Assembly: GCA_903895695.1 (NCBI GenBank)
Contig: CAITUY010000042.1
Location: forward strand, 879 to 64,878
Length of the DNA: 64,000 bases
DNA from: an uncultured bacterium
GTDB lineage: Bacteria; Verrucomicrobiota; Kiritimatiellia; CAIKKV01; CAITUY01
Direction: 5' to 3'
Position numbers and translations under genes: made by a program. Of this stretch, positions 5,651 through 47,232 are shown piece by piece; the first letter of the stretch is position 1; each line of letters begins with the position of its first letter. A model generated the notes under the pieces. That model was not told the DNA's origin. It did not search any database and saw nothing but the letters and a program-made list of their open reading frames with translations.

Positions 5651-6189
5651 GCCTTGACCTCGAAGGTGCGAATGACTTTGGCCGGGACGCCGGCCGCCAG
5701 GCAGTTGGCCGGGATATCGCGCGTCACCACGCTACCCGCGCCGATGACGGCATGATCGCCGATGGTGACGCCCTTGAGCACAATCACTCGCACGCCCAGC
5801 CACACGTCCCGGCCCAGAACGATCGGCCGGGATTCGCTCGGTCTATCGCGGTCCTCAACGCTGTGATAGTCGTTATCCATCAAACACGCGTAGGAGCCGA
5901 GTTGGCACCCGTCACCGATTTGCACCAGCTTGTGTGCGGAGATGCTGGCGCCATAGTTAATGAACACGCCGCTCCCGATCTCCAAGCGCGCACCGGGATA
6001 GGTAACGATCTCGGAGGTGACCGTGGTGCTGAAGAACCGGAATTTCTCGCCGATCATGACCTCGCCCAGGTTGGTAATCCGGGGCCGGCCATAGACACGC
6101 GGCAGGCGCCCCACCCGCGTGCAGCGGCGCAGATACCACCGCCCTAGCAGGACATGCCACGCGCTGTCGAGTTTATAGCCCAGGCTCAT
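5647..6189 (-). CDS. Hexapeptide-repeat (LbH) sugar O-acyltransferase.
   Basis: Repeated [LIV]G-x4 hexapeptides and a C-terminal VVTRDIPANCLAAGVPAKVIR motif typical of maltose/galactoside-acetyltransferase-like enzymes. ATGA overlaps on both sides. Confidence 0.8.
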   Translation of the reverse strand: MSLGYKLDSAWHVLLGRWYLRRCTRVGRLPRVYGRPRITNLGEVMIGEKFRFFSTTVTSEIVTYPGARLEIGSGVFINYGASISAHKLVQIGDGCQLGSYACLMDNDYHSVEDRDRPSESRPIVLGRDVWLGVRVIVLKGVTIGDHAVIGAGSVVTRDIPANCLAAGVPAKVIRTFEVKA

Positions 6190-10796: not shown

Positions 10797-10861
10797 TTCG
10801 GTAACGTATCTTGTCGAAGTTGCGAACGCAAGAAGTTGGCGGGAACGCGGCAAGCGCCGTG

Positions 10862-12019
10862 TCACATCACGCTGCTGTACGCTTCGAGCAGGCGATCGGC
10901 CTGCTTCACGCTGTCGAACTCGGCTTCGGCGCGGACGCGGCCGGCGCGGGCCAGTCGCTCGCACTCTCCCGGGTTGTCGAGCAGGCGGCGCATCGCGCCG
11001 GCCAGCGCCAGGAAATCGGACGGCGGCACGAGCAGCGCGGCATCGCCCACGACCTCGGGGATGGAACCATGCAGCGTTGTAATGACGGGCGTGCCCGAAG
11101 CTTGGGCCTCGGCCAACACGTAACCGAACTGCTCCAGCCAACCGGGGCGCGCCGTGGAGCCCAGCAGGAAGACATCGGCGACGTTGTATGCCGTGGGCAT
11201 CCGGTCGTACGGGAAGCGGGTAAACGTCACGCGGTCGGCAAGGCCGATCCGCTCCGCCAGCGCGCGCAATCGCGGCTCCTCCGGACCGGATCCGGCAAAG
11301 ATGAGTTTCAGGGGCCGATTCGTGACATCCAGCGTGAGGCGCTTGAACGCGTGCAGGATATCGTAGACGCCCTTTTCCCATCGAAGGGCCGCGACCGACA
11401 CGAAGACAAAATCATCTCCCGTGAGCCCCAGTCGCTTAAGCTCCTCGGCCGGCTTGGCGCGCGGCTGGAAGCGTTCCAGGTTGATGCCCGGGGCTTGAAT
11501 ACGGATCTTCCGGGCATCGGCACCCTCGAGTTCCAGGCACCGGGCCGCGCGCGGCGTGATGGCCAGCAGCAAGTCCGCGGCCCGCAACACCTCGTACTTC
11601 ATGCGGCGCTTGGCGGCAAAGCGTTCGGCGGCGTAGGGCCGATTCTCCCAGGCGGTGATCACCAGGCGAGTACCGTAGCGCTGCTTGGCCCGCATCGCCT
11701 GCCACGAGAACGCGTTGAACGTCTCCATGGTGTGCGCGATGTCGCAACCCGACAACGCCTTCTCCAACCCGAAGTGATAATAGTCCATGCCGTTGGTGGC
11801 CTGGAGCAGGAGGTCAAAATAGAAGCCCAGTTTCGGGCTGATCACCGTGACCGGATCATCGATGCAGCGCAGGTGCTTGATTGGCACGCGCAGGGTCTTG
11901 GTGGGGAAACGATTGATGCGGATGTGGTACGCCTCAAAGTCCACCCGATCCAGCAAGTGCTCGATCGTCTGGATCTCGAACTGCGACAGATATGCTCCGC
12001 GAATCAGGCCGACTTTCAT
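10862..12019 (-). CDS. GT4-family glycosyltransferase.
   Basis: GYVLAEAQASGTPVITTLHGSIPEVVGDAALLV is a GT4 C-terminal catalytic motif. Start trimmed to ATG 12019 (MKVGLIRG). Confidence 0.8.
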   Translation of the reverse strand: MKVGLIRGAYLSQFEIQTIEHLLDRVDFEAYHIRINRFPTKTLRVPIKHLRCIDDPVTVISPKLGFYFDLLLQATNGMDYYHFGLEKALSGCDIAHTMETFNAFSWQAMRAKQRYGTRLVITAWENRPYAAERFAAKRRMKYEVLRAADLLLAITPRAARCLELEGADARKIRIQAPGINLERFQPRAKPAEELKRLGLTGDDFVFVSVAALRWEKGVYDILHAFKRLTLDVTNRPLKLIFAGSGPEEPRLRALAERIGLADRVTFTRFPYDRMPTAYNVADVFLLGSTARPGWLEQFGYVLAEAQASGTPVITTLHGSIPEVVGDAALLVPPSDFLALAGAMRRLLDNPGECERLARAGRVRAEAEFDSVKQADRLLEAYSSVM

Positions 12020-12085
12020 GCCATCGTCTCTTCCCTTGTGTCGCCGCATCGTACACGGCGGCCGCAAGTTTTCCAAGGGTAATGC

Positions 12086-12337: not shown

Positions 12338-12874
12338 TCACCGCGGAGCCCGAATAGCCGCCTCCGGCGGCCGCACCTCGGCCCCGGCGGGGACGTCGCG
12401 CGTGACGATGCTGCCGGGATGGATCACGGCGCCTTCCCCGATCGTTACGCCCTTGAGAATCATCGCGCGGCAACCGATCCGGACGTTATCGCCGATGGTC
12501 ACGACCCGGTTCACCAGGGGGCGTCCGCCGACGCTGTGCAGATCGGTATCCATCACGAGCGCGTCCCACCCGAGATAGACGTTCTTCCCGATCGTCACCC
12601 GCGCCCACGCGACGATCTCGACTCCCGCGTCCAGCACCGTGCCGTCCCCGATGGCCAGTTCGCCCCCCTTGTGGGCCCACAGGCGGGTGCCGGCGGCGAG
12701 AAAGACGCGACCCAGCAGCATCCTGCCGGCCTCATTGATGACGAGAGGCGGCGGCGATCCGGAGCCGAACGTCACCTTCGATAGGTCCACGACGCCGCGC
12801 GCGCGCTTGAACCGGAACCGCGACGGCCGGCACTGGGCATCGGGAAGAAGCGGGAAAAGCGTCTCTGTACTCAT
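12338..12874 (-). CDS. Hexapeptide-repeat acyltransferase.
   Basis: GDNVRIGCRAMILKGVTIGEGAVIHPGSIVTRDVPAGAEV LbH motif. ATG at 12874 overlapping the upstream stop. Confidence 0.75.
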   Translation of the reverse strand: MSTETLFPLLPDAQCRPSRFRFKRARGVVDLSKVTFGSGSPPPLVINEAGRMLLGRVFLAAGTRLWAHKGGELAIGDGTVLDAGVEIVAWARVTIGKNVYLGWDALVMDTDLHSVGGRPLVNRVVTIGDNVRIGCRAMILKGVTIGEGAVIHPGSIVTRDVPAGAEVRPPEAAIRAPR

Positions 12875-13410
12875 GTGGCCACCTGTGCCGCCTTGCCGGC
12901 GATGATTGATCCCGCGGGGAATTCCCCTTGCACCACACTGCCGGCAGCCACGACGCAGCCCCGCCCCAGGACCGTGCCGCCCAGGATCACGGCGCGGCTA
13001 CCGACCCACACCTCATCTTCCAACACCACCGGCACGAAGGGCGAGGCGGCGTCAAACCCGGTGGCATCCGTGATGATCGTCTGCCAGGACACCATGCAGT
13101 TCCGGCCCAGCCGCACGGCCTGGCCGGAGAATACCCGGGCCTGCCGGTTAAGAAACGTGCCGTCGCCCACGGCAATCCGACCGTCGCCGCGACAGTGCAG
13201 CCGGACGCCCGGATAGAGTCCCACGTGCCCCAACTCAATCCGGCCGTGCCCGGCACGGATGTCCGGCCGCGGCCAGCCGCGCACCCACGCCACCGGGCCG
13301 GACCCGGTTCGCCGCCCCGGCAACAATACCCCCAACAGATAGGCGACAGGCGAGTAGTTCCGCTCTCCCGAGCGGAGGACGCGCAAGAAGGACAGGACGC
13401 GTTGTTTCAT
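12871..13410 (-). CDS. Hexapeptide-repeat acyltransferase (tandem paralog of the previous gene).
   Basis: GSRAVILGGTVLGRGCVVAAGSVVQGEFPAGSIIAGKAA LbH motif. ATGA overlap with GT4 gene at 13407-13410. Confidence 0.7.
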   Translation of the reverse strand: MKQRVLSFLRVLRSGERNYSPVAYLLGVLLPGRRTGSGPVAWVRGWPRPDIRAGHGRIELGHVGLYPGVRLHCRGDGRIAVGDGTFLNRQARVFSGQAVRLGRNCMVSWQTIITDATGFDAASPFVPVVLEDEVWVGSRAVILGGTVLGRGCVVAAGSVVQGEFPAGSIIAGKAAQVAT

Positions 13411-14588
13411 TTTCGCTGAACGACCTCATCCAATGCCGCATTCAGCTTATCGCCGATCACCGACCAATCGAAATGACGGCGAACGAATTCCAGTCCGGCG
13501 CGGGCCAGCGAGTCTGCCAGCGCCGGTTCGGCCAGCACCCTCAAGACAGCCGCCCCAAACTCGATGGGGCCATCGGCCAGCAGCAGTTCGCGGCCATGCT
13601 CCACGGGAATCCCCTCAGCGCCCAGGCGCGTCGAAACCACCGGGACACCCGCCGCGAACGCTTCGACGATCTTGAACCGCGTGCCGCCGCCCATTCTCAG
13701 GGGCACCGCAAACACCGATGACTGCCACATGAACGGCCTCACGTCGTCAACATAGCCCGTCACCGCCACATTGGCCGACTGGTAGGCGACGATCGAAGGC
13801 GGCGGCCGCCCGCCGACCACCGTGAAATGGAAATTCGGCCGCACGGATCGGATCAACCCCATGACGTCCCGCAAGAAGAAGAGCACTCCGTCCTCATTTG
13901 GAAAATAATGCGTGGCGCCGACGAATACGGCGGTATCGGGCTTGCGCGGACCGTCGGGACGCGTGAAATGCCCGCAATCCACACCATTGGTAATAGTCGC
14001 CGTGCGGATTCCCGCCTCGTGCCGCCGCAGCACCTCGCCGTCCCGTTCCGATGTCACCAGCGTCAGGGCCGCGCGGCGGGCCGCGGCGAGTTCCTCGCGG
14101 CGGAACTTGGCCGCCTCGATCCGGTTGAACGCCTTGCGGAACATGCCGCTCTCGCGGGCCGCCATCCGGTCAAGCAGGTCGAACTCCACGTTGTGTTCAT
14201 CCAGCACGACGGGAACGCCCGCCGGAAACCGGAACCCTGTCATTTGGGAGAACTCCACGAGAATCAGGTCAATGCCCTGCTCACCGACCAACCGGTCGAG
14301 AGCCGCCTGCATCGCGCGGTTGTAATGGAAGCGCAGCTGGAACGACTGCGCCGTGAACAGCGAATGCAGTTGCTGGCGGCGTTTGTCGCCGACGATGCGC
14401 GGAACCACGTTGATTGTCTTGCAGAAGGGCTCGAGTCCGCGGGGATCGCCCGCCCCCGCCTCCTCACGGTAAGTGAGAAGATGCACGGCATGGCGCCGGC
14501 TGAGTTGGCGGATGAGATGATAGATTCGGACCGAGCCGCCGAAGTTGGGCGGATACGGCACGTACGGAGTCATGACGAGAATATTCAT
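13407..14588 (-). CDS. GT4-family glycosyltransferase.
   Basis: N-terminus MNILVMTPYVPYPPNFGGSVRIYHL is typical of GT4 (GT-B) enzymes. 393 aa. Confidence 0.8.
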   Translation of the reverse strand: MNILVMTPYVPYPPNFGGSVRIYHLIRQLSRRHAVHLLTYREEAGAGDPRGLEPFCKTINVVPRIVGDKRRQQLHSLFTAQSFQLRFHYNRAMQAALDRLVGEQGIDLILVEFSQMTGFRFPAGVPVVLDEHNVEFDLLDRMAARESGMFRKAFNRIEAAKFRREELAAARRAALTLVTSERDGEVLRRHEAGIRTATITNGVDCGHFTRPDGPRKPDTAVFVGATHYFPNEDGVLFFLRDVMGLIRSVRPNFHFTVVGGRPPPSIVAYQSANVAVTGYVDDVRPFMWQSSVFAVPLRMGGGTRFKIVEAFAAGVPVVSTRLGAEGIPVEHGRELLLADGPIEFGAAVLRVLAEPALADSLARAGLEFVRRHFDWSVIGDKLNAALDEVVQRK

Positions 14589-14655
14589 AGTGCCTTCCGA
14601 ACTAAGTCACTGCGAGATGTGGACTTAACCATGAAGGGCACAAAGGCGACAAGCA

Positions 14656-17097
14656 TCATGCGTCCCCGCTTTGCTTCGTGTTCTTCGTGACCTTCGTGGT
14701 GGAACCCGAGGGAGCGGCACCCGCCAACTCCAGGTAAACCTGTTCGATGGCGCGTATCTGGCTGGCGGCACTGAAACGCCGCACCACGTTGGCCCGGGCC
14801 GCCGCGCCGACGCGTGCGCGCAGCGCCGGATCACGAACCAGATCCAGCAGGATCGCGGCCAGGGCCGCATCGTCGCGGACGGGAAAGAGGTAGCCATCCT
14901 CGCCGTGCGTAATGATCTCCGGGATGCCGCCGGCGCGCGTACCGACGACCGGCTTCCCGCAGGCGGCGGCCTCAACCACGACCATCCCGAAGGCCTCGCG
15001 CAAGGCGGCGTCAACGACGACGTCCAACCCGTTGCATACAGCCGGCATATCGGTTCGCCGCCCGATGAACGCGGTGCGCTTCTCAATGCCCAGTTCCCGC
15101 GTCAAATCCTTCAGCTTCCCCAGGTAACCGGCATTGTTGCTGGAGATAGAATCGTCGCCCACGATCACGAAGAACGCGTATGCGTCCTGCGCCGCTACCC
15201 GGGCTGCGGCCCGCAGAAACGTCTCCTGGTCCTTTTCCGGCGACACGCGGCAGGTGGTGCCGATCAGCACCTTCTCGGGCGATGCCGCCAGCTCCTGTCG
15301 CAGCGACGAGGGCTTGCCGGGCGCGTATTCGTCCGTGTCCACGGAGTTGTGGATGACCCGGATGCGATCCATGGCCGGGCCCAGGGCGCGGACGAAATCC
15401 TGCTTCATATCGCCCGAATTGGCGATGATCGCCGCCGCATGGGACACCGCCCACCGATTACCCGGGTGGTCCACAAAGCGATCGCGGATATGATAGATGA
15501 ACGGTATCCCGGTCAGCCGGTGCAACAGCGACACAAGCATCACGGAGCGCTTCTTGTCCGAGCTGTGGATGACCTGAATGCCGGCCTGCCGGCAACGCCA
15601 GGCCAACCGCATGGCGGTCCATCCGAGCGGCACGACACTGGCAGCGTCCGCCGCTTTCGCACACCAACCCACGCAGGAGTCCTTGGCTTTGGTACCCGCC
15701 TCGATCGTCCAGATCGTCATCCCCGGAATGGCGCGGAACCGAGGCAGTAGCGCACCGTGACCGAGACAGGCCAGATGCACGTCGAACCGGGTCCGGTCCA
15801 GGGCGCGCAGGATCGTCTTGTGACTCCGGATCACGCCGCCCATCGCATCGTTCGTGTCGAGCAACAGGGTCTTGATACGGGGAGCGCCGCCCACGGCCGT
15901 CGGCACGGGAGCGGGTTCGCTGCGTTTGCGCGCCGTGGACCGGTAGACGGCCTCCATCGCGCGCGCCTGGGCTTCAATGCTGAAGCGACGCAGGACCGTG
16001 GCCCGCCCCGCGGCACCTAGGCGCGCCCTCAGGGCCGGGTCGCGCACCAGGTCCGTCAACAGATCCGCCAGGGCAGCCTCGTCGCGCACCGGGAACAGGA
16101 AGCCATCCTCGCCATGCGTGATGATCTCCGGAATGCCGCCGGCGCGCGTGCCGACGACCGGCTTCTCACACGCGGCCGCCTCTACCACGACCATACCGAA
16201 AGCCTCGCGCCAGGCCGTGTTCACCACGACATCCAGCCCGCCATAAATGTTGACCATGTCACCGCGGCATCCCAAAAAGTGCGCGTGCGACTCCAAACCC
16301 AGTTCGCGCACCAGGCGGTGCAGCATGGGAACGTAATCGGCATTATCGCTAAAGATGGAATCGTCGCCCGCCAGGACGAAGTGGGCACGATCGTCGCGGG
16401 CGACAACCCGCGCCGCCGCGCGAATGAACGTCTCCTGGCCCTTGTCGGGCGCCAGCCGGCTGACCACGCCGATCAGGACCTGGGCGGGAGTGATCTTAAG
16501 CTCAGCACGCAGGCTCGATGGCAGCCCGGGCGCGAACTCGTTCGTGTCCAGACCGTTGTAGACGACTTCAATGCGCTCCAGGTCGGGCCCCCGCTCGCGA
16601 ATGAAGTCGCGCTTCATGTCTTCGGAGTTGGCCACGACAGCCGCCGCCAGCCGCAGGGCGCGCCGATTGGCCGGGAAATCAACGTAGTTGTTGTGAATAT
16701 GGTAGATGAACGGAATGCCGGTCAGCCGATGCAACAGCGTGGTGAGGATCACGGCCCGTTTCTTGTCGGAAGTATGGATGACCTGGATGCCGGCGCGCCG
16801 GCACTGCCGGGCAAGGCCCAGGACGCTCCGGACGAATGGCACCAGGCTGGCCACGTCCGCCAGCTTGGCGCGCCAGCCGGACCCCAGCGCGCGCGGTTTT
16901 GTGCCGACTTCCATGGTCCACAGGGTGATATCCGGGATGGCCTGAAACTGCGGCAACACTTTCCCGTGATCGAGGCAGGCGAGGTACAGATCGAACTGAC
17001 GGCGGTCGAGCGTACGCAGCAGGTTAACATGCACGCGCACCACGCCGCCCATGGCGTCGTTTGTATCCAACAACAGGACTTTGATTCGCTCGCTCAT
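14656..17097 (-). CDS. Tandem double GT4 glycosyltransferase (two complete GT-B GT4 modules in one 813-aa polypeptide).
   Basis: Two near-identical halves: [12 protein letters not shown]... at both N-terminal positions, and [14 protein letters not shown][EG][21 protein letters not shown][FY]LF twice. The antisense junk ORFs are also duplicated, confirming a DNA-level tandem duplication. ATG at 17097 overlaps the upstream stop. Confidence 0.8.
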
Positions 17098-17639
17098 TCG
17101 AACCACGGCTGGAACGAGAGGTCGTAACGCAAATCCCTGGCACGCTCTCCGATGACCTTGGCCGGCACGCCGCCGACCACGGCGTAGGCCGGCACGTCCT
17201 TGGTCACTACGGCGCCGGCGGCCACCACCGCGCCTTTCCCGATTGTCACGCCCGGCAGGATGGTCGCGCGGCTGCCCACCCAGGCGTGGTCCTCAATCAC
17301 GATCGGCTTGTCCTCGACCCCGAAGTCCGGGGCATCCTTGAGATGATTGGAGGTGATCAGCATCACCTCGGGCGAGAGGCTGACGTTGTTGCCGATCCGC
17401 AGGCCGCCGCGACCATCCAGGGTACAACGGCGGTTGATAATCGTGTGGTCGCCAACAATCATCGGCTGCGGATTGCGCCCGAAGGGCCGGTAGAAATACC
17501 AGAAGCACCCCATCAGGACCGAGGCGTCACGACCGAGGCGCACACCGACCACGTGCCGGTACCAGGCGTGCCGGATGGCATAGAAGGGAATGTGACAGAT
17601 GATGTGGTTCGTCCAATAGGCCAGCAACTTGGCGATCAT
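17094..17639 (-). CDS. Hexapeptide-repeat acyltransferase (WcaF/CysE-like, with an N-terminal helical extension).
   Basis: C-terminal LbH repeats [45 protein letters not shown]. Start trimmed to ATG 17639 (MIAKLL), which forms an ATGA overlap with wzx; the upstream part of the track ORF is R/G-rich junk. Confidence 0.75.
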
Positions 17640-19144
17640 GCAGCCCCCTTCCGTGCGGATTTGAGTGCGTGCAGCATATGGTGCAGGTCCTCGCGGGGGA
17701 CCACGCCGATCAGCAACGCCACCGGCAGGTAGAACGCCCCGCCCGCGACGATCAGCAGGACCAGGTTCGAGCTGCCCCACGCGCGCAGCAGCACCACCAT
17801 GGTTATGCCGACTGCCAGGGCCTTGAGCCCGCACACGACGTTACGCCGGCTGAACACGCCCTTGGGCATCAGCCAAAGCGCGCCGAACATCATGAGCACC
17901 TCGGTCAGCAGTGTGGCCGCCGACGCGCCGATACCGCCGTTACCCCATAGCCGCTGTGTGAAGGGAATGGCCCACAGGTTGAGCAGCGGATTGAAGACCG
18001 CGGCAGCCACCGCCATGCCGGCCCAGGGCTTTTCCTTGCCGCGCGCGATCAACGCCGTGCCCAGGACCACGTCAATGCAGACCAGCAGGATGGAGGCGCC
18101 CAGCACCTCCAGATTGGGGCCGGCCTGCATGAAGGGCCCCGGTCCATAGAGCAGACGCACGAAGGGTCGGGCGACGGCGATGGTACCCGCCGCCACCGGT
18201 ACCGCGGCGAACAACAACAGGTTCATGAGCCGCTCTGAGGCGCGGCCGAAGGCCGCTTCATCCCCGGCGTCCGAGCCGAGCCGCATCATGGCCGGGAAGA
18301 TCGACGTCATCAGGATATTGGGGATGAACAGGAGCGTGCCGTAGAGCCGAGTTGCCGCGCCGTACCAGCCGACGACGGCGTCGCTGGTCATGAGCGACAG
18401 CATCAGCACATCGATCCGCACATAGATCTCCCCGAAAATCACCCACACCAGGAACGGGAGCCCGCCGAGAAAGACGCGCCGGATCAACACGCGGTCCCAC
18501 ACCGGGACGAAACGCTCGATGCGCTGCAGCCAGCCGAGCGCAATCAGAAACGCGGCCACGGAGGCCGCCGTATGTGCCCAGCACGCGGCCCTCAGGCCGT
18601 AGCCGTGTGCCAGGAAAAACCAGCACCCGAACGTGACGACGGCCTTCTCGGCAATGAGCGCCACGTTCGAGCCGACCATGGTCTCCAACCCCTGGAACAC
18701 GCCGCCGAGTGTCTGCGTGATGGCGCCCAGACACGTCCCGAGGCCGATAATGAGCACCGCCTCACGGGTGGCGGCGTCATAGGGCAGAACGAAAATCAAC
18801 GCCGACTGAAACGCAAAGACCGCCACGGCGAGCACCAGTTTAAGGGCGAAGACATTCCCGAGCAGTGCGCGCAAGGAGGTGCGGCGCCGCTGGTTCTCGG
18901 CGTCCGGCAGGTCCGGCGCAGGGTGCAGGACGGCCACCTCGCGCACCAGGAAGGTGTTCAGCCCCAGGTTGATGAACTGGCTGAAAATCATGCCGTAACT
19001 GAGGGCAAAAAACAGCTTGCCGAAGCTGGCGTCGCCGAGTTTTCGCGGCAGAATAACGAGCAGAAACCAGGAGAGCGTCCAGGTGACGAGTTGGCTCGCC
19101 GCCTGAATGGCGGTGTTCTTGAGCGCGCGCCGGGTTTTACTCAT
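17636..19144 (-). CDS. wzx: Polysaccharide-repeat-unit flippase (Wzx, MOP/MATE-like superfamily).
   Basis: About 12-14 TM helices. N-terminus [37 protein letters not shown] is the typical Wzx/polysaccharide-biosynthesis-protein start. ATG at 19144. Confidence 0.8.
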
Positions 19145-19188
19145 GGATGGCGTTCCCAATAGCAGAAAGGGGGCCGTGGCTCAACTGT

Positions 19189-20652
19189 TCACTGTTTACC
19201 GGCCTGCGAGGCGATCTCCGCCGCCTCGATGCGGCGAACGCTGGTGCCCAGGGCCATCGCCATGCCGAGGTAGATCATGTTGCGGTAGAAGGTGATCTGC
19301 AGATCGTAGTAGGCGACGATGACCTGCCCGACGATGAACAGGATGACCATCAAGGCGAGGGCCTTGAAATAGGGATCGCGCATGGCGCGGTAGTCGATCA
19401 TGGCTTGCACGATCGCCGTGCCGAAGAACAGCCAGAAGATGGCGAAGCCGACAAACCCGGTCTTGATCCACACCCAATAAAGCGCGCAGTGGGGGATGTA
19501 ACGCCAGAGCGGGAACTCCTCGCCGATGTCGGCGTAGGGCACGACGATCAGGTACTTGTTGCCGAAACCGATGCCGAACGGATAGGCCCGGACGGTCGCC
19601 TTGAGATTGAGCAGTTCCAACTTCCGCCACTCGGTGGACTCGTTATCGACCGTGCCCTCCTGTTTGACGAACATGGACTTGATCTTCTGCGCCGGCATGG
19701 CCAGCCCGCCGCTCTTGTTCCAAAAGGCGGCGGTATAAACGGCGAAAAGCATGGCAACCGGGATCACGACGCGCAACGCCTGGAGCAGGCGTTCGCGCGG
19801 CAGCATGGCCACGACAATGCCCAGGCTGAGGCCGAGCACGCCGTAGGTGATGCGGCGTTGATTGAAAACGAACGTGAGCATGTTGGTGGGCAACGTGGCC
19901 AGCATGAACTTGAACTCCCGGCCGCGGTAGCCGAGGAAATAGCAGGCCGCGAGGAGCACGACGACCGTGACGATGAACAGCGAGTCCTCGTGGCCCAGGA
20001 TCGCGCGCAGGCTCCCCAGATCGCCGTGGCGGGTGATGAAATAGCGCCAGCAACCCTGGAACCCCTTGATGGCCACGCCGACAATGATGATCCACACGCA
20101 GATCCGTACCTGCCGCCGCGTGCGGATGATCTGGGCCGCGATGAAGTAGACGAGGCACAGGTAGTAGAGCGCGCGGATTTCCCACAGCGCCGCCTTCCAG
20201 TCCCCGCCGCGCGCCAGGCCGAAGCCCGTGAAGAACACCATCATCAGCAGAAACACGACGGCAATGCCGACGTTCGGAATCCGGTAGAGATGCCACTCGC
20301 GGCTGACCATGGCACGGAGGAACCAGGCGCCGACGACGACCGCGAGCAGCAACTCGACCGGGTTGAAGACCAGCGGGCCAATACCCGTGCTGCTGTTCAG
20401 GTTGAGGTAGAACGGCACCTTCGTGGTGACCGCGTCCACAAATCCAAAAACACGAAACTGGTCGAGCACCATGGTGGCGCCCAGCAGGATGTACAAGCCC
20501 AGATCCAGGTGACTCACGAGCAGCCACATCGCGAGGACGCCCACGCACAGCGCGGGGATGACGAGGCCGTTGGCGTTGGTCAGCCACAGCAGGCCGGCGC
20601 CGAACGCCGACACCCCAACGGCGGCGATGACGGAGGTGGAGGGCGGGCGCAT
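19189..20652 (-). CDS. Wzy-like polysaccharide polymerase / O-antigen-ligase-family integral membrane protein.
   Basis: 487 aa, about 11-12 TM helices with a large loop near the C-terminal third (Wzy_C-like architecture). Sits between wzx and wzc. Confidence 0.65.
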   Translation of the reverse strand: MRPPSTSVIAAVGVSAFGAGLLWLTNANGLVIPALCVGVLAMWLLVSHLDLGLYILLGATMVLDQFRVFGFVDAVTTKVPFYLNLNSSTGIGPLVFNPVELLLAVVVGAWFLRAMVSREWHLYRIPNVGIAVVFLLMMVFFTGFGLARGGDWKAALWEIRALYYLCLVYFIAAQIIRTRRQVRICVWIIIVGVAIKGFQGCWRYFITRHGDLGSLRAILGHEDSLFIVTVVVLLAACYFLGYRGREFKFMLATLPTNMLTFVFNQRRITYGVLGLSLGIVVAMLPRERLLQALRVVIPVAMLFAVYTAAFWNKSGGLAMPAQKIKSMFVKQEGTVDNESTEWRKLELLNLKATVRAYPFGIGFGNKYLIVVPYADIGEEFPLWRYIPHCALYWVWIKTGFVGFAIFWLFFGTAIVQAMIDYRAMRDPYFKALALMVILFIVGQVIVAYYDLQITFYRNMIYLGMAMALGTSVRRIEAAEIASQAGKQ

Positions 20653-20660
20653 GCGGCAGC

Positions 20661-20795
20661 CTAAAACGTCAGGCGCGTGAAGAGCAGGACGCCCACGATG
20701 GCCAGCATCATGGCCACGATGGTCCAGCGGCCGATCTCGCGCACCACGGCGCCGGTGGTGAAGAAGATCGCCAGCATGAGCAGGATCATCTTCAT
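20661..20795 (-). CDS. Candidate 44-aa hydrophobic micro-protein (two predicted TM helices), absent from the supplied ORF track.
   Basis: Reverse-strand translation by eye: MKMILLMLAIFFTTGAVVREIGRWTIVAMMLAIVGVLLFTRLTF*. ATG lies 4 nt after the wzc stop, in a 147-bp gap between wzy and wzc. Confidence 0.3.
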   Translation of the reverse strand: MKMILLMLAIFFTTGAVVREIGRWTIVAMMLAIVGVLLFTRLTF

Positions 20796-20799
20796 GCGA

Positions 20800-23130
20800 T
20801 CACACCCAGCGATAGAGCCACTCGGGAATCCAGTACTCGGTGTAGTTCACAACCACCCCGACGAGCTTCTCCCGCGGCAGTCTCCGGGCGGCGGCTTCGA
20901 TCACTTTCGCCTTGGTGGCGTACAACTGGCTCACTAGCAGCACCCCGTCGGTCTGCGGCGCGATCAGCAGGCCGTCCGAATGCGACGTAAGGTCGGGGAC
21001 CTCGATCAACACGACGGCGAAACGGTCGCGCGCCTGGTCGAGCAGGCGGCTGAAGGCGGCGGAGTTGAACAGCACCTCGCCATACTCGATCGTCTTGCCG
21101 GCTGGCAGCAGCGAAAGGTTCGGATTCGCGGTCGCCACGATCGCGCCGTCCAGCGCCACGCGACCGTCGAGCACATCCCCCAGCCCCGGCACGCCGCCGG
21201 CCTGGAACAAGGCCGACAAACCCGGGCTCTGCAGGCTGGCATCCACCAACAGCACCGGTTGCCGCAGATCGCTGGCCAGCACCACCCCGAGGTTAGCTGT
21301 CAGCAGCGTCTTGCCCTCCCGAGGCTTCGCGCTGGCGACCATCAGAACCAGCGGCGCGGGGGGCTCATAGGCGGCGCGGACGGCGATGCCGATATGACGG
21401 ACGCGCTCCATGAAGTCATCCAGGGCCTCCTCCTGCGGATCATCCGACGCGCCCGCCCGCTGCACCCGTGCGGCGCTCACGAGGAAGCCGGGCGACACGG
21501 TCCAAGGTAGATCGAAACGGCGGGCGCGGAAGGCCACTCCCAGCCCCGCCTTGAGCCGCGCGGTCGCCTTCCGGGTCCAAGTCCAGCGCGGCCGGCTGGT
21601 CGCCGCCACCAACCGATCCAAGGGCTTCTGCAGCCAGGCCGGCAGGATCAGCGGTGCCTTCCCCCGGTACAGCTTGGGCAGGGCGCCAATCAGCGGCACT
21701 CCCAGCCGCCGGCTCAGGTCGCCCGGCCGGCACAGCCTCGGATCCCCGAACTCCAGCACAAAGACAATCAGGAACCCGAGGCAGAACCCGCCGCCCACGC
21801 CGGCCGCGAGAAAATTCTTGCGGATCGGCTTGTACCGCGACAGCGCGACGAGGGGCGGATCGATGATGGTAAAACGGTTGGTCTGCTGCTCGAACTCGAC
21901 TTCGCGGGAAACGCGAGCCTGCTCCAGCTTCATGCGCAGGTTGTCATAGATCTCCCGCGTCAGCTTGACCTCGCCCTCCATCCGCGCCTGGTCCCGTTCC
22001 AGTTGCGGGACGGCCAGGAGTTTCTGCCGTGTCTCGCCCGCCATGCGGTTGAATTCCTCGACCTTCTGTTCCAGGACCTTGATCTTGATGCGCGCGTCTT
22101 CCCGGCGGGCCGTAACCTCCTGGAAGACCGGCGAGCGTACTTCCTGGGTCTCGGACGCCTGGTTCTTCTCCTTCTCGTGTTCCAGCAGGTCCTTGATGTA
22201 TTCCATCTCGCGCTGGAGCTTGAGCACTTCGGGGTGCGATTTGTCCCGCGTGGCCAGCAGGTTACCCATCCGCAACGACAACTCCTGGTACTGGCGCTGA
22301 TACGGCGTGTTCTGGACGAAAAGGGCCTGCGAGACCACCATCGGCTTCTCGCCGGCCAGCCGTTCGGTCAGCAGCTTTTCGTTCAGGTGCTCCTGCTTGA
22401 GTTCCAGATCGGCGTCCAGCGCCTTGGCGGTGTAGTCGTGCAACTGGCCTCCGAGGCCCAGGAGTTGCTGCAACGTCTCGGCGTTCGCCTGGCGGAAATC
22501 CTGAAGCGCCCCCTCCATGCGCTCAAGTTCCTCGCGATAATGATCGAGTTCCTTCTGGATGAAGTCCACCGCGGCCATCGCCTCGCGCCGGCTGCCGTGC
22601 AGGCTCTTCTCAATGAACAAACGGCTGATGGCATCCACCAGGTCCCGGGCCATCACCGGATCCGCCGCCGAACAGCCGATCTGAAACGAGTCCGCCGCCA
22701 GGCCGATCAGATGAATGTTCGCGCGAATCTGGTTGACCAGTGCCTCAAGTTCCGCGTCGTTCCTGAGCTTCTTGTCCAATCCCAGCTTGCGAATGGTGTC
22801 CTCGATCAGCGGCCGGCTGTAGATAATCTTCTGGAACGAGCCCAGCCGGTTGTAATCGGTCATCGCCACGGCCGTTTCATACCGGACCAGCGGGTTGAGA
22901 ATGTCCTCCTTGCCCAGCAGGATCGTGGTCGAAGACATATAGCTGGGTTTGACGATGAGGCTGGCCAGCAGGCTCAGAATCGGCGTCAGGATCAGCACGA
23001 CCAGAAAAAGTCGCTTCCGGCGGAACACGGTTTCCAGGAGGTAACGCAGACTGAAATCGCCTGCGACGCGCGTCTCCGGCGTCGTGGGCTGGGTCCGTCT
23101 GGGCACCTTGCTGCTCATCCGCGGGATCAA
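20800..23130 (-). CDS. wzc: Wzc-like polysaccharide co-polymerase with C-terminal BY-kinase (tyrosine autokinase) domain.
   Basis: N-terminal TM plus Wzz-like region, a long coiled-coil periplasmic segment and a second TM (FLAAGVGGGFCLGFLIVFVL). Then Walker A VASAKPREGKTLL, Walker A' VLLVDASLQSP and a C-terminal Tyr cluster (NYTEYWIPEWLYRWV). Start is TTG 23130 or ATG 23118. Confidence 0.8.
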   Translation of the reverse strand: MIPRMSSKVPRRTQPTTPETRVAGDFSLRYLLETVFRRKRLFLVVLILTPILSLLASLIVKPSYMSSTTILLGKEDILNPLVRYETAVAMTDYNRLGSFQKIIYSRPLIEDTIRKLGLDKKLRNDAELEALVNQIRANIHLIGLAADSFQIGCSAADPVMARDLVDAISRLFIEKSLHGSRREAMAAVDFIQKELDHYREELERMEGALQDFRQANAETLQQLLGLGGQLHDYTAKALDADLELKQEHLNEKLLTERLAGEKPMVVSQALFVQNTPYQRQYQELSLRMGNLLATRDKSHPEVLKLQREMEYIKDLLEHEKEKNQASETQEVRSPVFQEVTARREDARIKIKVLEQKVEEFNRMAGETRQKLLAVPQLERDQARMEGEVKLTREIYDNLRMKLEQARVSREVEFEQQTNRFTIIDPPLVALSRYKPIRKNFLAAGVGGGFCLGFLIVFVLEFGDPRLCRPGDLSRRLGVPLIGALPKLYRGKAPLILPAWLQKPLDRLVAATSRPRWTWTRKATARLKAGLGVAFRARRFDLPWTVSPGFLVSAARVQRAGASDDPQEEALDDFMERVRHIGIAVRAAYEPPAPLVLMVASAKPREGKTLLTANLGVVLASDLRQPVLLVDASLQSPGLSALFQAGGVPGLGDVLDGRVALDGAIVATANPNLSLLPAGKTIEYGEVLFNSAAFSRLLDQARDRFAVVLIEVPDLTSHSDGLLIAPQTDGVLLVSQLYATKAKVIEAAARRLPREKLVGVVVNYTEYWIPEWLYRWV

Positions 23131-24125
23131 TTCTTCTTGTTGAGGGTCTGCAGGGTCGCGCCGAGCAACACCGTGTTGATCGACGGCGTCAACTGGCCGA
23201 GGTAGTAGTTGAACGTCGCCACGCCCTTGCGCGGCACGTAAACGATGTCGCCGGACTCAATCGCCGGGTTGTCCGTGACTTTGCCGCCCAGCATGCCCTG
23301 CATGTTCACGGTCAGGACCGTGGCCTTCCCGGACTTGTCGCGTCGGACCACGCGCACCTTGCTCAATTGCGCATCATGCGTTTCGCCGCCCGCGAGCGCT
23401 ACTGCCCGGACCACGTCCACGTCCTGGCCCCGGGCGAACACGCCGGGCCGAGCCACTTCACCGAGCACGTAGAAGGTGTGTTCCTCGTCGGCCTTGACGT
23501 AGACGGCATCCTCCGGCAACAGGGGGATGTTCAACGTACGATCGCCTTTGCGCAGCAGGTCATAGAGATTGATCTCGATCACCGTGCCGCGCCCGCGCAC
23601 CACCGTGCAACCGCGCATATCCGCCTTGTCCGTCAGTCCTTCCGCCCGCGCCAGGGCACTGAGCAGCAACGGCCGGCCCGGGAAGTTGTACTGACCCGGC
23701 TTGCGCACCTCGCCGAGCACGAAAATGCGGTTGTTGTTGTACTCCTGAACGATGATGTTGACCGTCGGGTTCAGGTAGGCGGGCTTCAGCAAGGCCTCGA
23801 TCTTCGCCTCCGCCTGCTCCCGGGTCAAGCCGTCCAGGCTCACCACCCCCACGCCCGGCACCGTGATCTTGCCGTCGGGGCCGATGACGTAATTGCGGTT
23901 CAGTTCCGCCACGTCCATGGCATAAAGTTGCACCACGTCGCCGGCGCCCAGCAGGTAGTCGCCGGCACCGATCTCCAGCGTCTTGAGCTGTTCAGCCGTC
24001 AGCCCCATGGAGGGCTGGTTTGTCGCCTCCGAGGGCGCCCCGCCGGCCTCGGGAGCGGCCCGCGGCGGGACGGTCACGCAGGCGGACAGGCCGAGAAGCA
24101 GTAAGATAGAGGCCGCTTTGTTCAT
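23127..24125 (-). CDS. wza: Wza-like outer-membrane polysaccharide export lipoprotein (OPX family).
   Basis: Lipobox LLLLGLSAC. Poly_export/SLBB-type segments (DYLLGAGDVVQL..., PGQYNFPG). 332 aa. Confidence 0.8.
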   Translation of the reverse strand: MNKAASILLLLGLSACVTVPPRAAPEAGGAPSEATNQPSMGLTAEQLKTLEIGAGDYLLGAGDVVQLYAMDVAELNRNYVIGPDGKITVPGVGVVSLDGLTREQAEAKIEALLKPAYLNPTVNIIVQEYNNNRIFVLGEVRKPGQYNFPGRPLLLSALARAEGLTDKADMRGCTVVRGRGTVIEINLYDLLRKGDRTLNIPLLPEDAVYVKADEEHTFYVLGEVARPGVFARGQDVDVVRAVALAGGETHDAQLSKVRVVRRDKSGKATVLTVNMQGMLGGKVTDNPAIESGDIVYVPRKGVATFNYYLGQLTPSINTVLLGATLQTLNKKN

Positions 24126-25756
24126 GACTTTTGCGGAAATCTCAGGTGATAGATGCTGCGAGGCGCCAGGGCCCGTCGCACGCCATCTCTTTGCACCGGA
24201 ACCGGTTCCTTCGTCGCTTCAATGCCGTCCCCCTGTTCGCCGACACGGTATTCATTCCCCGGAAGCAGGTCAATGCCTTTGAACTCGACCCTGAGGGTTT
24301 GCGTCAACGCCGACTTGTTGACGACGATGAGGGTGACGACCTTCCGCTCCTCGTCGCGAGCGGCATACACAGACAGGCGCTCATGGCCCTCGGCCGGGGT
24401 CGTCCAAGCGACATCGAGGCGCGCGTTGCCGAAGGCGGCCTCGTGGCCGTCCGCGTTCCGATACAAAGCGTAGGCTGCCGCCGTCGGCGACCCTTCCTGC
24501 GGATAGGTCCAGTAGCAGGCCAGATCGAGCCCTTCGCGGCCGAAGATGCCCAGGATGTCGGCCAGCGCCAGCGCGCCGCTGATATCCTCCTCACCGCCCC
24601 AGTTGTACTCAGTGATGCCGGTCTTCAAGCCCGGATAGTACCGCCCCACCCAGCGCTGCAACCGCGGGATCAACGTGATTCGGTCGTTGATCCACGAAGG
24701 ATCCCGGTAGGCCGGATCGAAAAGCGAGCGTGTTGTCTCGACCCGCAGGGCCGTCGCCTTCACATCGACGGACGCGGAGTGCACGCCTTCGGCTTGCGGA
24801 TAGAAGTGAACCGTCACGACGTCCAGCAGCCGTTCGCCCGTACGATCCTCGTGCGCCTTCAGTTGTTTGAGGAACCAGGGCAGGAAGTCCTCTCCGCCGT
24901 GACTGGCCCGATCGCGGTTGCTCCCGGTCTCGCGGTCCAGGGCGGACTGGGCATAGGCCGGCCAGCCCCATAGATCCGGGCCGGTAATGGGAGCGCCCGG
25001 CGCGGCCTGACGGACCGCGTGTGCCATGGCGACGAATTTCTCCAGATACTCGTCGTAGGACACCGGGTTGGGATGCACGTCGCGATGCGTGACGTTCCAC
25101 AGCATGGGCTCGTTGCCCAGCGCGAACAGCACCCGGTGCTCTTCGAATAGCTTCGGGAACTCCTGCTCCATTTGGCGGATCCACTCGGCCACAAAGGACG
25201 GGTCGGCCACCACGGAGGTATCGGAACGATCATTCCCAGTCACGGGCTTCCCATCCGGCCGTAATCCGTTGCCGGCATCCGGACGGCCCGGGTCGGTCTT
25301 CTCCTGCGGCCCGTATTTGCGCACGGAAAACGATGTCGAATGCGTGTCTTTAGCCACAAATCCCACCAGCGGCAGCGTCACCAGTGCCCGTCCACCGGAC
25401 TGTTCGGCCCGCCGCAGGAAGCCCTGCCAGGCGTTATGCTCGACGGCCACGTTTTCGAAGAACCAGTCGTTACCGGTGTTCCACGCGTCGCCCAGCTTCC
25501 AGTTGTACCGGCAGGCCGTATTGCCCCCCCAGCGGTTCAGCGGTACGCAGGCATTGGTTAGCAATCGCAGCGGCGCCGCGGCCATGCCGTATATGTCAGG
25601 CGAAATCTGCTGGGGCTTCGCCGGGAGACTGATCCGGCACGTCGGCATCGGTGCAAGCAAGTCCGCGGCGTCCACGCGCCCGGCCGAGGCCGCCATGAGC
25701 CCGGCGATGCTGGCGGCGCCAAGTGCTCCGGCTATCCGCCATCGCTGTCGCGTCAT
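24122..25756 (-). CDS. Secreted glycoside-hydrolase-like protein (TIM-barrel GH; family not assignable by eye).
   Basis: Signal peptide [26 protein letters not shown]. Conserved block [28 protein letters not shown]. Start trimmed to ATG 25756 (ATGA overlap with the upstream gene); the track's 81-aa [10 protein letters not shown] extension is rejected. Confidence 0.6.
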
Positions 25757-26307
25757 GTGGCTTCCAGGGCTCGCAGCATACGGGCGGGCACGCCCGCGGC
25801 GAGCACGTTGGGCGGGATATCGCGCGTCACGACGGCCCCGGCGCCGACCACGGCCCCTTCCCCGATACTCACGCCCGGCAGCACCGTGACCCGCGCGCCC
25901 AGCCACGCGCCGCAGCCGACGCGAACCGGCTTGCACTCCGACTGGCCCGCACGGAACGTGGGCCGGCCGATCGCATGGGTGACCGTGAGAAACAGGCATT
26001 CCATCCCGACCGAAACGCCATCCTCCAGCACAATGTCACCGCCCAGGTTGAAGGCCACGCCTTCATTGAGGTAACAGTTCTGTCCAATGCTGAGGCACTT
26101 GGCTGGAGAGCCGTTTCCCGTGAGATGCAACGACCCGGAAAGAACCGTGCCGCGGCCGATCCGCAAGCCACCGAGCCGGTACAGACGCGGGCGCAACCGC
26201 AACCCGGTTCCCGACGGGATCAGCGCCCCCAGAAGCCGAACCAGCCTCCACCGCGGGTGCAGACCTTCGATTTCGCTTACGAACAGGGATTTCACAGAAC
26301 CATTCAT
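25753..26307 (-). CDS. Hexapeptide-repeat acyltransferase.
   Basis: [52 protein letters not shown] LbH motif. First gene of the minus-strand array, facing a divergent promoter gap at 26308-26429. Confidence 0.7.
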
Positions 26308-26429
26308 GGCGGAAATACCCTTGCACAACGCCAGGGCTGAATCAAGCCTTGCAGCGGGCAGAATTGGAACTTCTCAGGCGTCAGGACGTGGCCTATAGTG
26401 GCCGAAACCGCGTGACTTGGGGGACATTC

Positions 26430-47064: not shown

Positions 47065-47232
47065 CGGCTCCGGGACTAGCAGTCTGTCGGGCTTAAACGC
47101 TACGAGAGGCCGCAACCGTCGCTACCGGCGGAGGACCGCCGGCTCCAGTTCGCTTTTGGGGCGCTTTGGAGCCGGCCGTCTCGGCCGGTAGCAGGCGTGG
47201 TGCCCTTCGGGTCGTAAGTCCGACAGGCTGCT
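47065..47232. terminator. About 165-nt nested, imperfect long hairpin (three tiers of pairing) between convergent genes. Bidirectional terminator or small structured RNA.
   Basis: ctagcagtctgtcgg...ccgacaggctgctag outer stem; gctaccggc/gccggtagc middle stem; gccggctcca/tggagccggc inner stem with a gttcgcttttggggcg loop. Confidence 0.35.

Follow-up and report, generated by a model that had tools for sequence, protein, structure and literature searches.

An old tandem duplication and fusion underlie a probably bifunctional double-GT4 glycosyltransferase in a Wzx/Wzy-type polysaccharide locus

The window analysed here, a 64,000-nucleotide stretch of DNA from an uncultured bacterium, encodes an 813-aa protein in which two GT4 glycosyltransferase modules, related by an old tandem duplication and joined by fusion, follow one another in one polypeptide, and it is probable that this protein acts as a bifunctional enzyme of the Wzx/Wzy pathway. 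A GT4 gene of ~390 aa, flanked in a Wzx/Wzy-type operon by an O-acetyltransferase gene and by a further GT4 gene unrelated to it, was duplicated in tandem, and the two copies merged into one reading frame through a flexible linker of ~15 aa. The N module stayed near the ancestral single-copy enzyme, and the C module underwent fast early divergence before coming under purifying selection, with fixed changes at or beside motif positions that the GT4 literature ties to donor binding: Arg for His135, Ser for the Gly following Asn181, and Asp for the Gly following Lys219. The resulting protein is predicted to contain two independent retaining GT-B active sites, which would work at the cytoplasmic face of the membrane to add two successive sugars to a lipid-linked repeat unit before it is flipped by Wzx and polymerised by Wzy; the two sugars or linkages would probably differ.

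Organization of the protein and its locus

As a reading made earlier from the sequence alone (hereafter the sequence-only reading) had described, two complete GT4 modules lie within a single open reading frame (ORF) of 813 aa (Table 1). The GT4-related Pfam families each match it twice (Glycos_transf_1, 6.1e-69; Glyco_transf_4, 4.4e-31), with scores above the curated thresholds for PF00534 (231 bits), PF13439 (109 bits) and PF13692 (209 bits), in two stretches each, and a gap-free alignment of its halves spans 382 residues, the two being offset by 403 aa (1209 nt), with a BLASTP E of 3e-160 that lies well outside what chance would give. Tandem Repeats Finder gave no report at the locus, the longest period run being 500 nt and a 1209-nt repeat lying beyond that range.

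Table 1. Features of the double-GT4 ORF and its operon (positions are those of the window).
Feature	Position	Strand	Remark
Whole double-GT4 ORF	14656..17097	minus	813 aa from ATG, plus stop; database protein P0001 identical
N module, aa 1-390	15928..17097	minus	complete GT4/GT-B unit; conservative copy
Inter-module linker, aa 391-405	15883..15927	minus	predicted disordered; length kept, sequence variable among orthologues
C module, aa 406-794	14716..15882	minus	complete GT4/GT-B unit; divergent copy
C-terminal tail, aa 795-813, plus stop codon	14656..14715	minus	specific to the window
E-x7-E, N module (E298...E306)	16180..16206	minus	
E-x7-E, C module (E701...E709)	14971..14997	minus	
H133-I-H135, N module	16693..16701	minus	
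H536-I-R538, C module	15484..15492	minus	His-to-Arg fixed in 6/6 C modules
Downstream GT4, 393 aa	13407..14588	minus	different GT4 family resembling TIGR03087 'stp1'; adjoins the slot in all related loci
Hexapeptide-repeat O-acetyltransferase, upstream	17094..17639	minus	181 aa in orthologues; translationally coupled to the double GT4
Upstream operon part	17636..25999	minus	exopolysaccharide genes
Wzx flippase	17636-19159	minus	
Wzy-like polymerase	19189-20652	minus	
44-aa micro-ORF	20661-20795	minus	
Wzc-like chain-length/tyrosine-kinase protein	20800-23130	minus	
Wza exporter	23127-24125	minus	
GH44 hydrolase	24122-25999	minus	

The start codon (ATG, 17095-17097) and the TGA that ends the upstream acetyltransferase gene share bases (ATGA), as they do in orthologous loci; the mechanical ORF reaches back to a GTG at 17106. 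At the other end, the orthologues (793-806 aa) stop about 7-20 aa sooner and share 4 nt with the gene that follows, whereas the window ORF has a gap of 67 nt after it. Between the modules, the linker differs in sequence among the window and loci L005 and L007, and the 403-aa offset is identical in all three.

An AlphaFold model of the protein (mean pLDDT 89) contains two GT-B units, the alternating strand/helix pattern occurring twice, with values mostly >85 in the N module and <50 in linker residues 395-403 and tail residues 795-813. When compared with the structures of HepE, BshA and MshA by Foldseek, each module gave a TM of 0.85-0.87, with one module aligned per match. A pseudo-dimer in which the two modules pack in a fixed way was also considered and is unsupported, since the linker is predicted to be disordered and the pTM is 0.55.

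The order of the upstream operon is the same in loci L001, L004, L005 and L013, and the position occupied by the double-GT4 gene, referred to here as the slot, varies in content. The sequence-only reading had asked whether orthologues have one module or two, and the answer is mixed: they have two in at least five assemblies, whereas the syntenic relatives have a single module, a tandem pair or a single gene without the C module. For example, L001 and L004, which are identical in gene order, carry a single module gene of ~390 aa in the slot; another lineage has two separate tandem genes, encoding P0088 and P0098, which are 7 nt apart, 81% identical and have identical motifs; L011 contains two separate paralogues; L013 encodes P0102 as the sole member of this GT4 family in a locus that is otherwise intact; and some relatives with the same gene order have a single gene from which the C module has been lost.

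The N module is orthologous to the widespread single-module slot gene, being 78% identical to the stand-alone proteins P0065 and P0066 and 50-68% identical to >80 other single-module proteins. By comparison, an exhaustive search of 1.84 billion cluster representatives found no stand-alone C-like protein. Origin by tandem duplication in situ is therefore indicated, because syntenic loci carry a single gene in the slot and, of all stand-alone proteins, those of the N-type family come closest to the C module. A foreign GT4 family as the source of the C module was rejected, as its nearest stand-alone relatives (55-66%) belong to the same N-type family and the exhaustive search found nothing closer. 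A word-index search with a single-module query missed double proteins that are 78-100% identical, so the absence of doubles from that search is no evidence. Unequal crossing-over between modules was likewise discarded as a source of P0065 or P0066, since P0066 is N-like over its entire length and P0065 is N-like except at aa 121-180, a segment that resembles both modules to the same degree.

Divergence of the C module and its probable function

Both modules retain the core motifs of the family, namely the Gly-Gly loop, the Arg/Lys pair and E-x7-E (G17 G18, R214, K219, E298 and E306 in the N module; G420 G421, R617, K622, E701 and E709 in the C module), and each of these sets is conserved in 6/6 orthologues. 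The earlier observation of an E-x7-E motif in both halves is thus borne out, and the stronger claim that both are catalytically intact has to be qualified: 71/73 family-conserved columns are kept in the N module and 66/73 in the C module, and the C clade has nine fixed replacements, including H135R, G182S and G220D, at sites conserved in >=85% of single-module relatives. The dN/dS between orthologues is 0.07-0.08 for the N module and 0.10-0.14 for the C module, values that show purifying selection on both.

The C modules group as one monophyletic clade (bootstrap 1.0) that sits on a long stem, and the topology of this clade mirrors that of the N clade. In a neighbor-joining tree, the C clade falls outside a group of the N modules, P0065 and P0066 (bootstrap 1.0) and is joined to it at 0.62 support, a placement that could reflect long-branch attraction.

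His135 is invariant in 77/78 single-module relatives and, from the motif pattern and a survey of HMM columns, is probably the conserved N-domain His of GT4 enzymes, corresponding to His118 of PimB'. The N-domain profile mapping of His135 to solved GT4 structures is ambiguous by two residues, in that the 7mi0 alignment and the HMM column survey place the canonical His at column 135, whereas the BshA alignment places it at column 133. In PimB', the substitution H118S leaves the enzyme inactive, and the closed state modelled by the authors of that study shows this His in contact with the C6 hydroxyl of the donor sugar (PMC2988379). For GumH, a computational model has the donor mannose contacted by His118 and Asn174 (PMC13104830). 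Given the reported contact with the C6 hydroxyl, the change to Arg might, as one part of the tentative proposal set out below, retarget the donor pocket to a sugar modified at C6, for instance a uronic acid or a 6-deoxy sugar. A paper on TviE, a GT4 enzyme that takes a uronic-acid donor, yielded no relevant His or carboxylate contacts.

Some glycosyltransferase pairs consist of one active and one inactive subunit. The C module might accordingly be a catalytically dead pseudo-glycosyltransferase kept to provide a scaffold, to bind the acceptor or the membrane, or to activate the N module, a reading that we consider unlikely. It draws on the presence of Arg in place of the family-invariant His135 in 6/6 C modules, on the essential role of the equivalent His in PimB' (PMC2988379), on the fixed changes adjoining Asn181 and Lys219, and on a dN/dS somewhat above that of the N module; if column 135 is the canonical His, the C module could, given the replacement result in PimB', be inactive. 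Nevertheless, it would be unusual for a dead enzyme to keep E-x7-E, the Arg/Lys pair, the Gly-Gly loop and 66 of the 73 conserved columns, and the same His-to-Arg change, which arose independently in P0102, is found there in the sole family enzyme of an otherwise intact locus. Arg is also frequent at column 135 of other GT4 modules (76/236 modules of the other multi-GT4 proteins retrieved, a set biased to relatives of the query), often beside a His-type module but in some proteins in both modules, and if the alignment of the His is indeed two residues off, the C module would retain the canonical His as H536. On balance, the C-module substitutions are better explained by altered specificity than by inactivation.

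It is equally improbable, in our estimate, that both modules catalyse the same reaction, the fusion raising the local dose of enzyme or adding the same sugar twice running. The two modules do derive from one gene and have all core motifs in common, and the separate copies P0088 and P0098, with their identical motifs, illustrate that an increase in copy number does happen in the slot. However, several of the nine replacements fixed in the C clade lie at or beside positions linked to donor binding, a long stem followed by strong constraint is what would be expected had the function changed, and the copies remain distinct, with gene conversion not seen. A bifunctional enzyme whose modules differ in specificity is the reading that we prefer to either of these.

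The donor and acceptor specificity of GT4 enzymes is still unpredictable from sequence, and this pair of modules, which differs at few family-invariant positions that lie at or beside motifs linked to donor binding, offers a compact test set for this problem. The change from His to Arg at column 135 arose at least two times within the one family to which the slot genes belong, and it is found in roughly one third of the modules surveyed from other multi-GT4 proteins. A broader proposal, that this replacement is a general, reusable specificity switch of GT4 enzymes and, jointly, that it retargets the donor and that the slot is a series of edits, is tentative and on balance rather doubtful. If true, the slot would form a natural series in which the duplication, fusion, switch or deletion of one GT4 module edits the chemistry of the repeat unit, running through a single His-type module, a single Arg-type module, two separate copies, a fused His-plus-Arg protein and secondary loss. 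At the level of gene content, closely related uncultured bacteria have a single gene, two tandem genes, a fused two-module gene, or a single gene again after module loss in the slot, so the locus is a clean worked example of the diversification of a polysaccharide cluster.

Age of the duplication and recurrence of the fused gene

The sequence-only reading had described the two halves as near-identical over long stretches and the duplication as recent, and neither description survives measurement. Identity between the halves is 64% for protein and 67% for DNA; because third codon positions are only 48% identical and dS is about 1.1 and saturated (1.14 in the window ORF, about 1.1-4.4 overall), the duplication must be old. 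Among fused orthologues, N modules are 78-90% identical to each other and C modules 77-85%, whereas N and C modules are only 63-65% identical, and these comparisons place the duplication before the split of orthologues that today are only 77-81% identical.

The most similar stretch between the modules, 61 codons around E-x7-E, is 85% identical in amino acids and 82% in nucleotides. Between N and C modules of different genomes this stretch is 79-89% identical in amino acids, and it is also the most conserved part of the whole family; the equal similarity across genomes and the family-wide conservation point to constraint, not to recency or gene conversion. Gene conversion at this stretch was rejected on the ground that the within-genome identity is not above the cross-genome values. 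The antisense ORFs of the two halves (14671-15750 and 16114-17127), whose duplication had been offered as a sign of a recent event, are indeed similar (41% over 281 aa), but this is a by-product of homologous GC-rich DNA.

At least five further assemblies, all of them independent, also contain the fused ORF, in sequences that differ by 13-23% (JGI 3300022555; JGI 3300009175, with two variants; ENA ERZ27245846 and ERZ1426818; and Logan). L012, an independent assembly of the same strain (99.94% identical), begins within the C module, leaving the junction uncovered. The possibility raised in the sequence-only reading, that an assembly artefact merged two tandem paralogues, is excluded for practical purposes, since independent JGI, ENA and Logan assemblies all contain this fused ORF, in which the linker keeps its length and varies in sequence. 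A merger of this kind, or a recent duplication at the DNA level, could appeal to one 261-nt stretch at 79% nucleotide identity and to the two separate tandem genes that do occupy the slot in other lineages, yet it is extremely improbable in view of the saturated synonymous sites, the fusion at the same 403-aa offset in all of these divergent assemblies, and a conserved stretch that is equally similar between genomes. For annotation, this means that such double-GT4 ORFs should be neither split nor flagged as misassemblies.

Comparison with known systems

A multi-GT4 architecture is not new, as such proteins are abundant and the layout is common in bacteria. For example, WbdA has two GT4 domains, which has been taken to imply two transfer reactions (PMC7820976). 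Like the protein described here, WbdA (E. coli O9a; the CPA locus of Pseudomonas syringae) combines two GT4/GT-B modules in one polypeptide of about 800 aa, but it is a chain-extending polymerase of an ABC-transporter (Wzm/Wzt) pathway with the terminator WbdD, whereas the window gene lies in a Wzx/Wzy/Wzc/Wza cluster and its modules are recent enough to be 64% identical and can be traced to a gene that occupies this slot as a single copy. Within the set of window ORFs that was scanned, the cluster comprises Wzx, Wzy, a Wzc-like protein and Wza, with neither a Wzm/Wzt transporter nor a WbdD-like terminator associated with it; the only ABC protein in this set (47231-48790) is of the soluble two-ATPase type and lies 30 kb off.

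The best solved relative of each module is Alr3699/HepE of Anabaena (PDB 4XSO/4XSR), a GT4 glucosyltransferase of the heterocyst envelope polysaccharide, which matches the family profile over its full length (E = 2.4e-63) and shares the Y-H-x-H-D motif of the N module. It differs in being a single-module enzyme of about 26% identity that uses UDP-glucose as donor.

There is also a resemblance to the PEP-CTERM/exosortase (XrtA) exopolysaccharide loci, in that TIGR03007, TIGR03018, TIGR03087 'stp1' and TIGR03088 'stp2' are the best NCBIfam matches of the neighbouring genes. All of these fall below cut-off, so that no NCBIfam model supplies a name: the N and C modules score 122 and 126 bits against the 409 bits required for TIGR03088 'stp2', the Wzc-like protein 259 where 279 is needed, and the neighbouring GT4 234 where 317 is needed. 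The scanned ORFs, which cover the window apart from ~20 long ORFs near its two ends (about 1-3.1 kb and 55-64 kb), include no exosortase gene; in the orthologous locus L005, genes for an EpsH exosortase and EpsI adjoin the cluster.

Finally, more than 100 of the best 150 representatives in the exhaustive search are uncharacterised metagenomic proteins of 700-1600 aa with 2-5 GT4 stretches, many of which pair His-type with Arg-type modules. These proteins are 25-35% identical to the window protein, and their own halves are mostly only 25-47% identical to each other. The fused clade of the window is thus a younger, separately arisen example of a multi-GT4 protein, in which the single-copy ancestral state is still observable.

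Two homologous GT4 modules in one reading frame

The double GT4 is encoded by an uninterrupted minus-strand ORF that runs from an ATG at 17097 to a stop at 14656, and its 813-aa product is identical to the database protein P0001. The mechanically called ORF starts at a GTG three codons ahead of this ATG (17106); the upstream gene ends in a TGA that shares bases with this ATG (ATGA), an arrangement that recurs in orthologous loci. Every GT4-related Pfam family matches the protein twice, and its N module (aa 1-390) and C module (aa 406-794) can be aligned gap-free across 382 residues, with the C module displaced by exactly 403 aa (1209 nt), at 64% identity and a BLASTP E value of 3e-160, so the duplication is real and well past chance. 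The module limits match whole-gene limits: the first residue of the C module corresponds to residue 4 of the stand-alone proteins, and the N module stops where these proteins stop, with ~15 variable residues following.

A sequence-only reading of this DNA had proposed a double enzyme formed by recent tandem duplication of near-identical halves, or else an assembly artefact. Its observation was partly confirmed and its interpretation partly supported: two GT4 modules, tandem duplication and a double enzyme hold, and recency, near-identity and artefact do not. Nucleotide identity between the halves is 67% (75% at first, 79% at second and 48% at third codon positions), with dN = 0.28 and dS = 1.14 (NG86), and the sole strongly alike stretch spans 61 codons around E-x7-E (85% amino acid and 82% nucleotide identity). 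The antisense ORFs of the two halves are indeed similar (41% over 281 aa), but this likeness, which had been read as a sign of recency, is a trivial consequence of homologous, GC-rich DNA (65% GC, 81% GC3).

The fused layout in other assemblies

ORFs with the same fusion, 793-806 aa long and sharing 77-87% identity with that of the window, occur in JGI 3300022555, JGI 3300009175 (which holds two different variants), ENA ERZ27245846, ENA ERZ1426818 and Logan. The ORFs of the first four assemblies share the same gene neighbourhood; the Logan ORF lies on a short contig of 3.5 kb. Linker length is equal in the window and in the related loci L005 and L007, and linker sequence differs. Because independent assemblies repeat the fusion with a linker of constant length and differing sequence, the fused ORF is not an artefact that merged paralogs. 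L012, an independent assembly of essentially the same strain (99.94% identical), starts inside the C module, and the junction lies outside its range. Named relatives comprise Kiritimatiella glycovorans (53%), a 'Kiritimatiellia bacterium' MAG and an 'uncultured Lentisphaerae bacterium', and the samples that gave near-identical contigs carry the label BUCK21; the window probably stems from an uncultured member of the PVC group in a metagenome.

Age and origin of the C module

Orthologous modules are 78-90% (N-N) or 77-85% (C-C) identical, and N-C identity is always 63-65%; dS between N and C is saturated (1.0-4.4, vs 0.7-1.7 for orthologous modules). Modules from six fused orthologues were placed in a neighbour-joining tree together with one from the partial double protein P0007 and with 78 single-module relatives. 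There the C modules make up a single clade with bootstrap 1.0 and a long stem, and they branch in the same order as the N modules do. This pairing, the saturated dS and the mirrored tree show that the duplication is older than the divergence of all known fused orthologues, and refute a recent one; the reading as a recent duplication or an assembly artefact has a negligible probability.

Orthologues proved to be both double- and single-module, and the duplication occurred in place. In L001 (P0065) and L004 (P0066), which have the same gene order, the slot between the O-acetyltransferase gene and the unrelated 393-aa GT4 gene holds one gene of 390 or 397 aa, 78% identical to N, and >80 more single-module relatives are 50-68% identical to N, all nearer N than C. 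A word-index search with the C module gave no stand-alone protein nearer to it than the N-type family, and when 1.84 billion cluster representatives were scanned exhaustively with HMMER, nothing exceeded 60% apart from the representative of the fused clade itself. Since neither search found a stand-alone C-like protein, the C module is the divergent daughter of a local duplication rather than an import. The simplest history would be that the whole gene was duplicated in tandem and the stop codon then lost; duplication of the complete ORF in frame fits the same data and is indistinguishable from it. The tree places C outside the clade of N, P0065 and P0066 (bootstrap 1.0), joined to it with a support of only 0.62, so that either the duplication is older than P0065, whose C module would then also have been lost, or the long C branch was drawn outward. 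As a whole, we regard this evolutionary account as very likely correct.

Other states of the slot are visible in other lineages. P0066 nests within the N modules of the fused clade (with P0005_N and P0184_N, bootstrap 1.0), is 87.7% identical to the N module of L005 and is N-like over its full length; it has thus lost its C module secondarily. In one lineage (ENA ERZ1426841; L014 1203-2384) the slot is filled by P0088 and P0098, separate genes in tandem (81% identical, 7 nt apart), and L011 6052-8655 contains two separate paralogues (54% identical, 174-nt spacer), so tandem duplication of this GT4 gene is recurrent. P0007, a 585-aa sequence on a 3-kb JGI contig, belongs to another branch of the GT4 family; its two halves share 54% identity, and only 44-49% with the window modules, and it may represent an independent duplication and fusion.

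Constraint and activity of the two modules

Both modules are strongly constrained (dN/dS across orthologues of 0.07-0.08 for N and 0.10-0.14 for C). An AlphaFold model (mean pLDDT 89.2) contains two complete GT-B units, each matching HepE, BshA, MshA and PimB' structures, plus a disordered linker (395-403) and tail (795-813); its pTM is only 0.55, so the modules resemble two beads on a string without a fixed pseudo-dimer. The 78 single-module relatives have 73 columns with a conservation of at least 95%; of these, 71 are kept in every N module and 66 in every C module, and the Gly-Gly loop and the Arg214/Lys219 and Glu298/Glu306 columns are kept by both alike. The proposal that both halves are catalytically intact is favoured by these core motifs and by the constraint, but needs qualifying: in the C clade, nine replacements are fixed at sites with at least 85% conservation among single-module relatives (V20I, H135R, G182S, S213C, A216S, G220D, Y285C, M308A and I374A). 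On balance, both sites are probably active.

In PimB', the conserved N-domain His reaches the C6 hydroxyl of the donor sugar in a closed state modelled by the authors, and the H118S mutant lacks activity (PMC2988379). In a computational model of GumH, the donor mannose is touched by His118 and Asn174 (PMC13104830). With the C changes placed on motif positions by motif comparison alone, without structural superposition, H135R would lie at the position of the canonical N-domain His (GumH His118). G182S adjoins the invariant Asn181, which may be the counterpart of GumH Asn174, and G220D adjoins Lys219 of the Arg/Lys pair. An HMM survey and 7mi0 align the canonical His with column 135; BshA aligns it with column 133, which C keeps as H536.

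The same His135-to-Arg change arose independently in P0102 (L013 6001-7224), a single-copy protein that shares 60% identity with N and has eight member sequences from three contigs. It is this GT4 family's sole gene in the L013 slot, in a locus that is otherwise intact, and has none of the other eight replacements. In the other multi-GT4 proteins retrieved, a sample biased to query relatives, 123 modules have His and 76 have Arg at column 135, and the pairs are His-His (17), Arg-His (15), His-Arg (15) and Arg-Arg (8). P0102, this survey and the constraint on C argue that Arg is a working variant and no lesion. Whichever column holds the canonical His, C is more likely to be active than dead, and a dead scaffold is unlikely. 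That the donor pocket is altered in C is a weaker proposal than that C is active.

Operon setting and proposed role

The double GT4 sits in a long co-directional minus-strand operon, within what is a Wzx/Wzy-dependent exopolysaccharide (EPS) cluster. This cluster resembles exosortase-associated EPS loci, yet all NCBIfam scores fall below the curated cut-off.

Features of the window discussed in the text
Feature	Position	Strand	Remark
1286-aa ORF	49906-53766	-	no Pfam match at all
1628-aa protein	38571-43457	-	CARDB, MORN-variant and bacterial TSP3 repeats
Candidate regulatory pair, one member	30806-32470	-	~3 kb from the other
Candidate regulatory pair, other member	26349-27932	+	
GH44 hydrolase	24122-25999	-	upstream end of operon as listed
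Wza-type exporter	23127-24125	-	
Wzc-like chain-length/tyrosine-kinase protein	20800-23130	-	
44-aa hydrophobic micro-ORF	20661-20795	-	between Wzc-like and Wzy-like genes
Wzy-like polymerase	19189-20652	-	
Wzx flippase	17636-19159	-	
Hexapeptide O-acetyltransferase	17094-17639	-	directly upstream of double GT4
Double GT4	14656-17097	-	
393-aa GT4	13407-14588	-	unrelated to, and downstream of, double GT4
Hexapeptide acetyltransferase	12871-13410	-	
Hexapeptide acetyltransferase	12338-12874	-	
Additional transferases	below 12338	-	
GT4 gene	10862-12076		
Mechanical 770-aa ORF	9069-11381		overlaps GT4 gene 10862-12076; gene called as 575 aa in L012
Phosphoglucomutase/phosphomannomutase-like	9069-about 10796	-	downstream of a 385-aa GT4
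Phosphoglucomutase/phosphomannomutase-like	7387-9039	+	convergent with preceding entry and likewise downstream of that GT4
Hexapeptide-repeat acyltransferase	5647-6189	-	

The double GT4 would be a soluble or membrane-peripheral protein whose two sites add two successive sugars to a lipid-linked repeat unit, which would then be flipped by Wzx, polymerised by Wzy and exported via Wzc/Wza. The N site might perform the ancestral reaction of the slot and the C site a derived one, with a changed donor or linkage preference. The chance that N and C differ in specificity is roughly even; that they perform the same activity twice, as their shared motifs might suggest and the replacements fixed in C might not, is as improbable as a dead C module.

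The double-GT4 layout is already known and very common, since WbdA uses two GT4 domains to extend O-antigen or CPA chains (PMC7820976) and proteins with two to five GT4 modules make up >100 of the best 150 representatives in the exhaustive search. The likeness to WbdA is one of layout and not of pathway context, as WbdA works with Wzm/Wzt and WbdD, whereas the window protein has Wzx/Wzy neighbours. Halves of other multi-GT4 proteins are mostly 25-47% identical to each other; unusual here is only that the halves retain 64% identity and that one slot can be seen in its single, tandem, fused and reverted forms.

Other features of the cluster and window

The very hydrophobic, conserved micro-ORF (MKMILLMLAIFFTTGAVVREIGRWTIVAMMLAIVGVLLFTRLTF) has no Pfam match on record; its counterparts at L005 4772-4906 and L013 2278-2412 are clearly similar, and in L001 a 44-aa gene occupies the corresponding position (2740-2874). 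The presence of four hexapeptide-repeat acyltransferase genes in one EPS cluster suggests a heavily O-acylated polysaccharide. In the window (14589-14715), the C-terminal tail of the double GT4 extends ~7-20 aa past the orthologue ends and the next gene follows after a gap of 67 nt; in L005 and L007 these two genes overlap by 4 nt, which suggests a small local alteration at the window gene's 3' end. At the place of the two mutase-like genes, L005 has exosortase EpsH and EpsI genes.

The candidate regulatory pair consists of a WecG/TagA-family glycosyltransferase fused to two STAS (anti-sigma-antagonist-like) domains, whose best NCBIfam match, 'EpsA', is below cut-off, and a single protein combining a response-regulator receiver, a PP2C/SpoIIE phosphatase and an RsbW-like HATPase_c_2 kinase domain. 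From their domains, the two look like a partner-switching module wired to an EPS glycosyltransferase.
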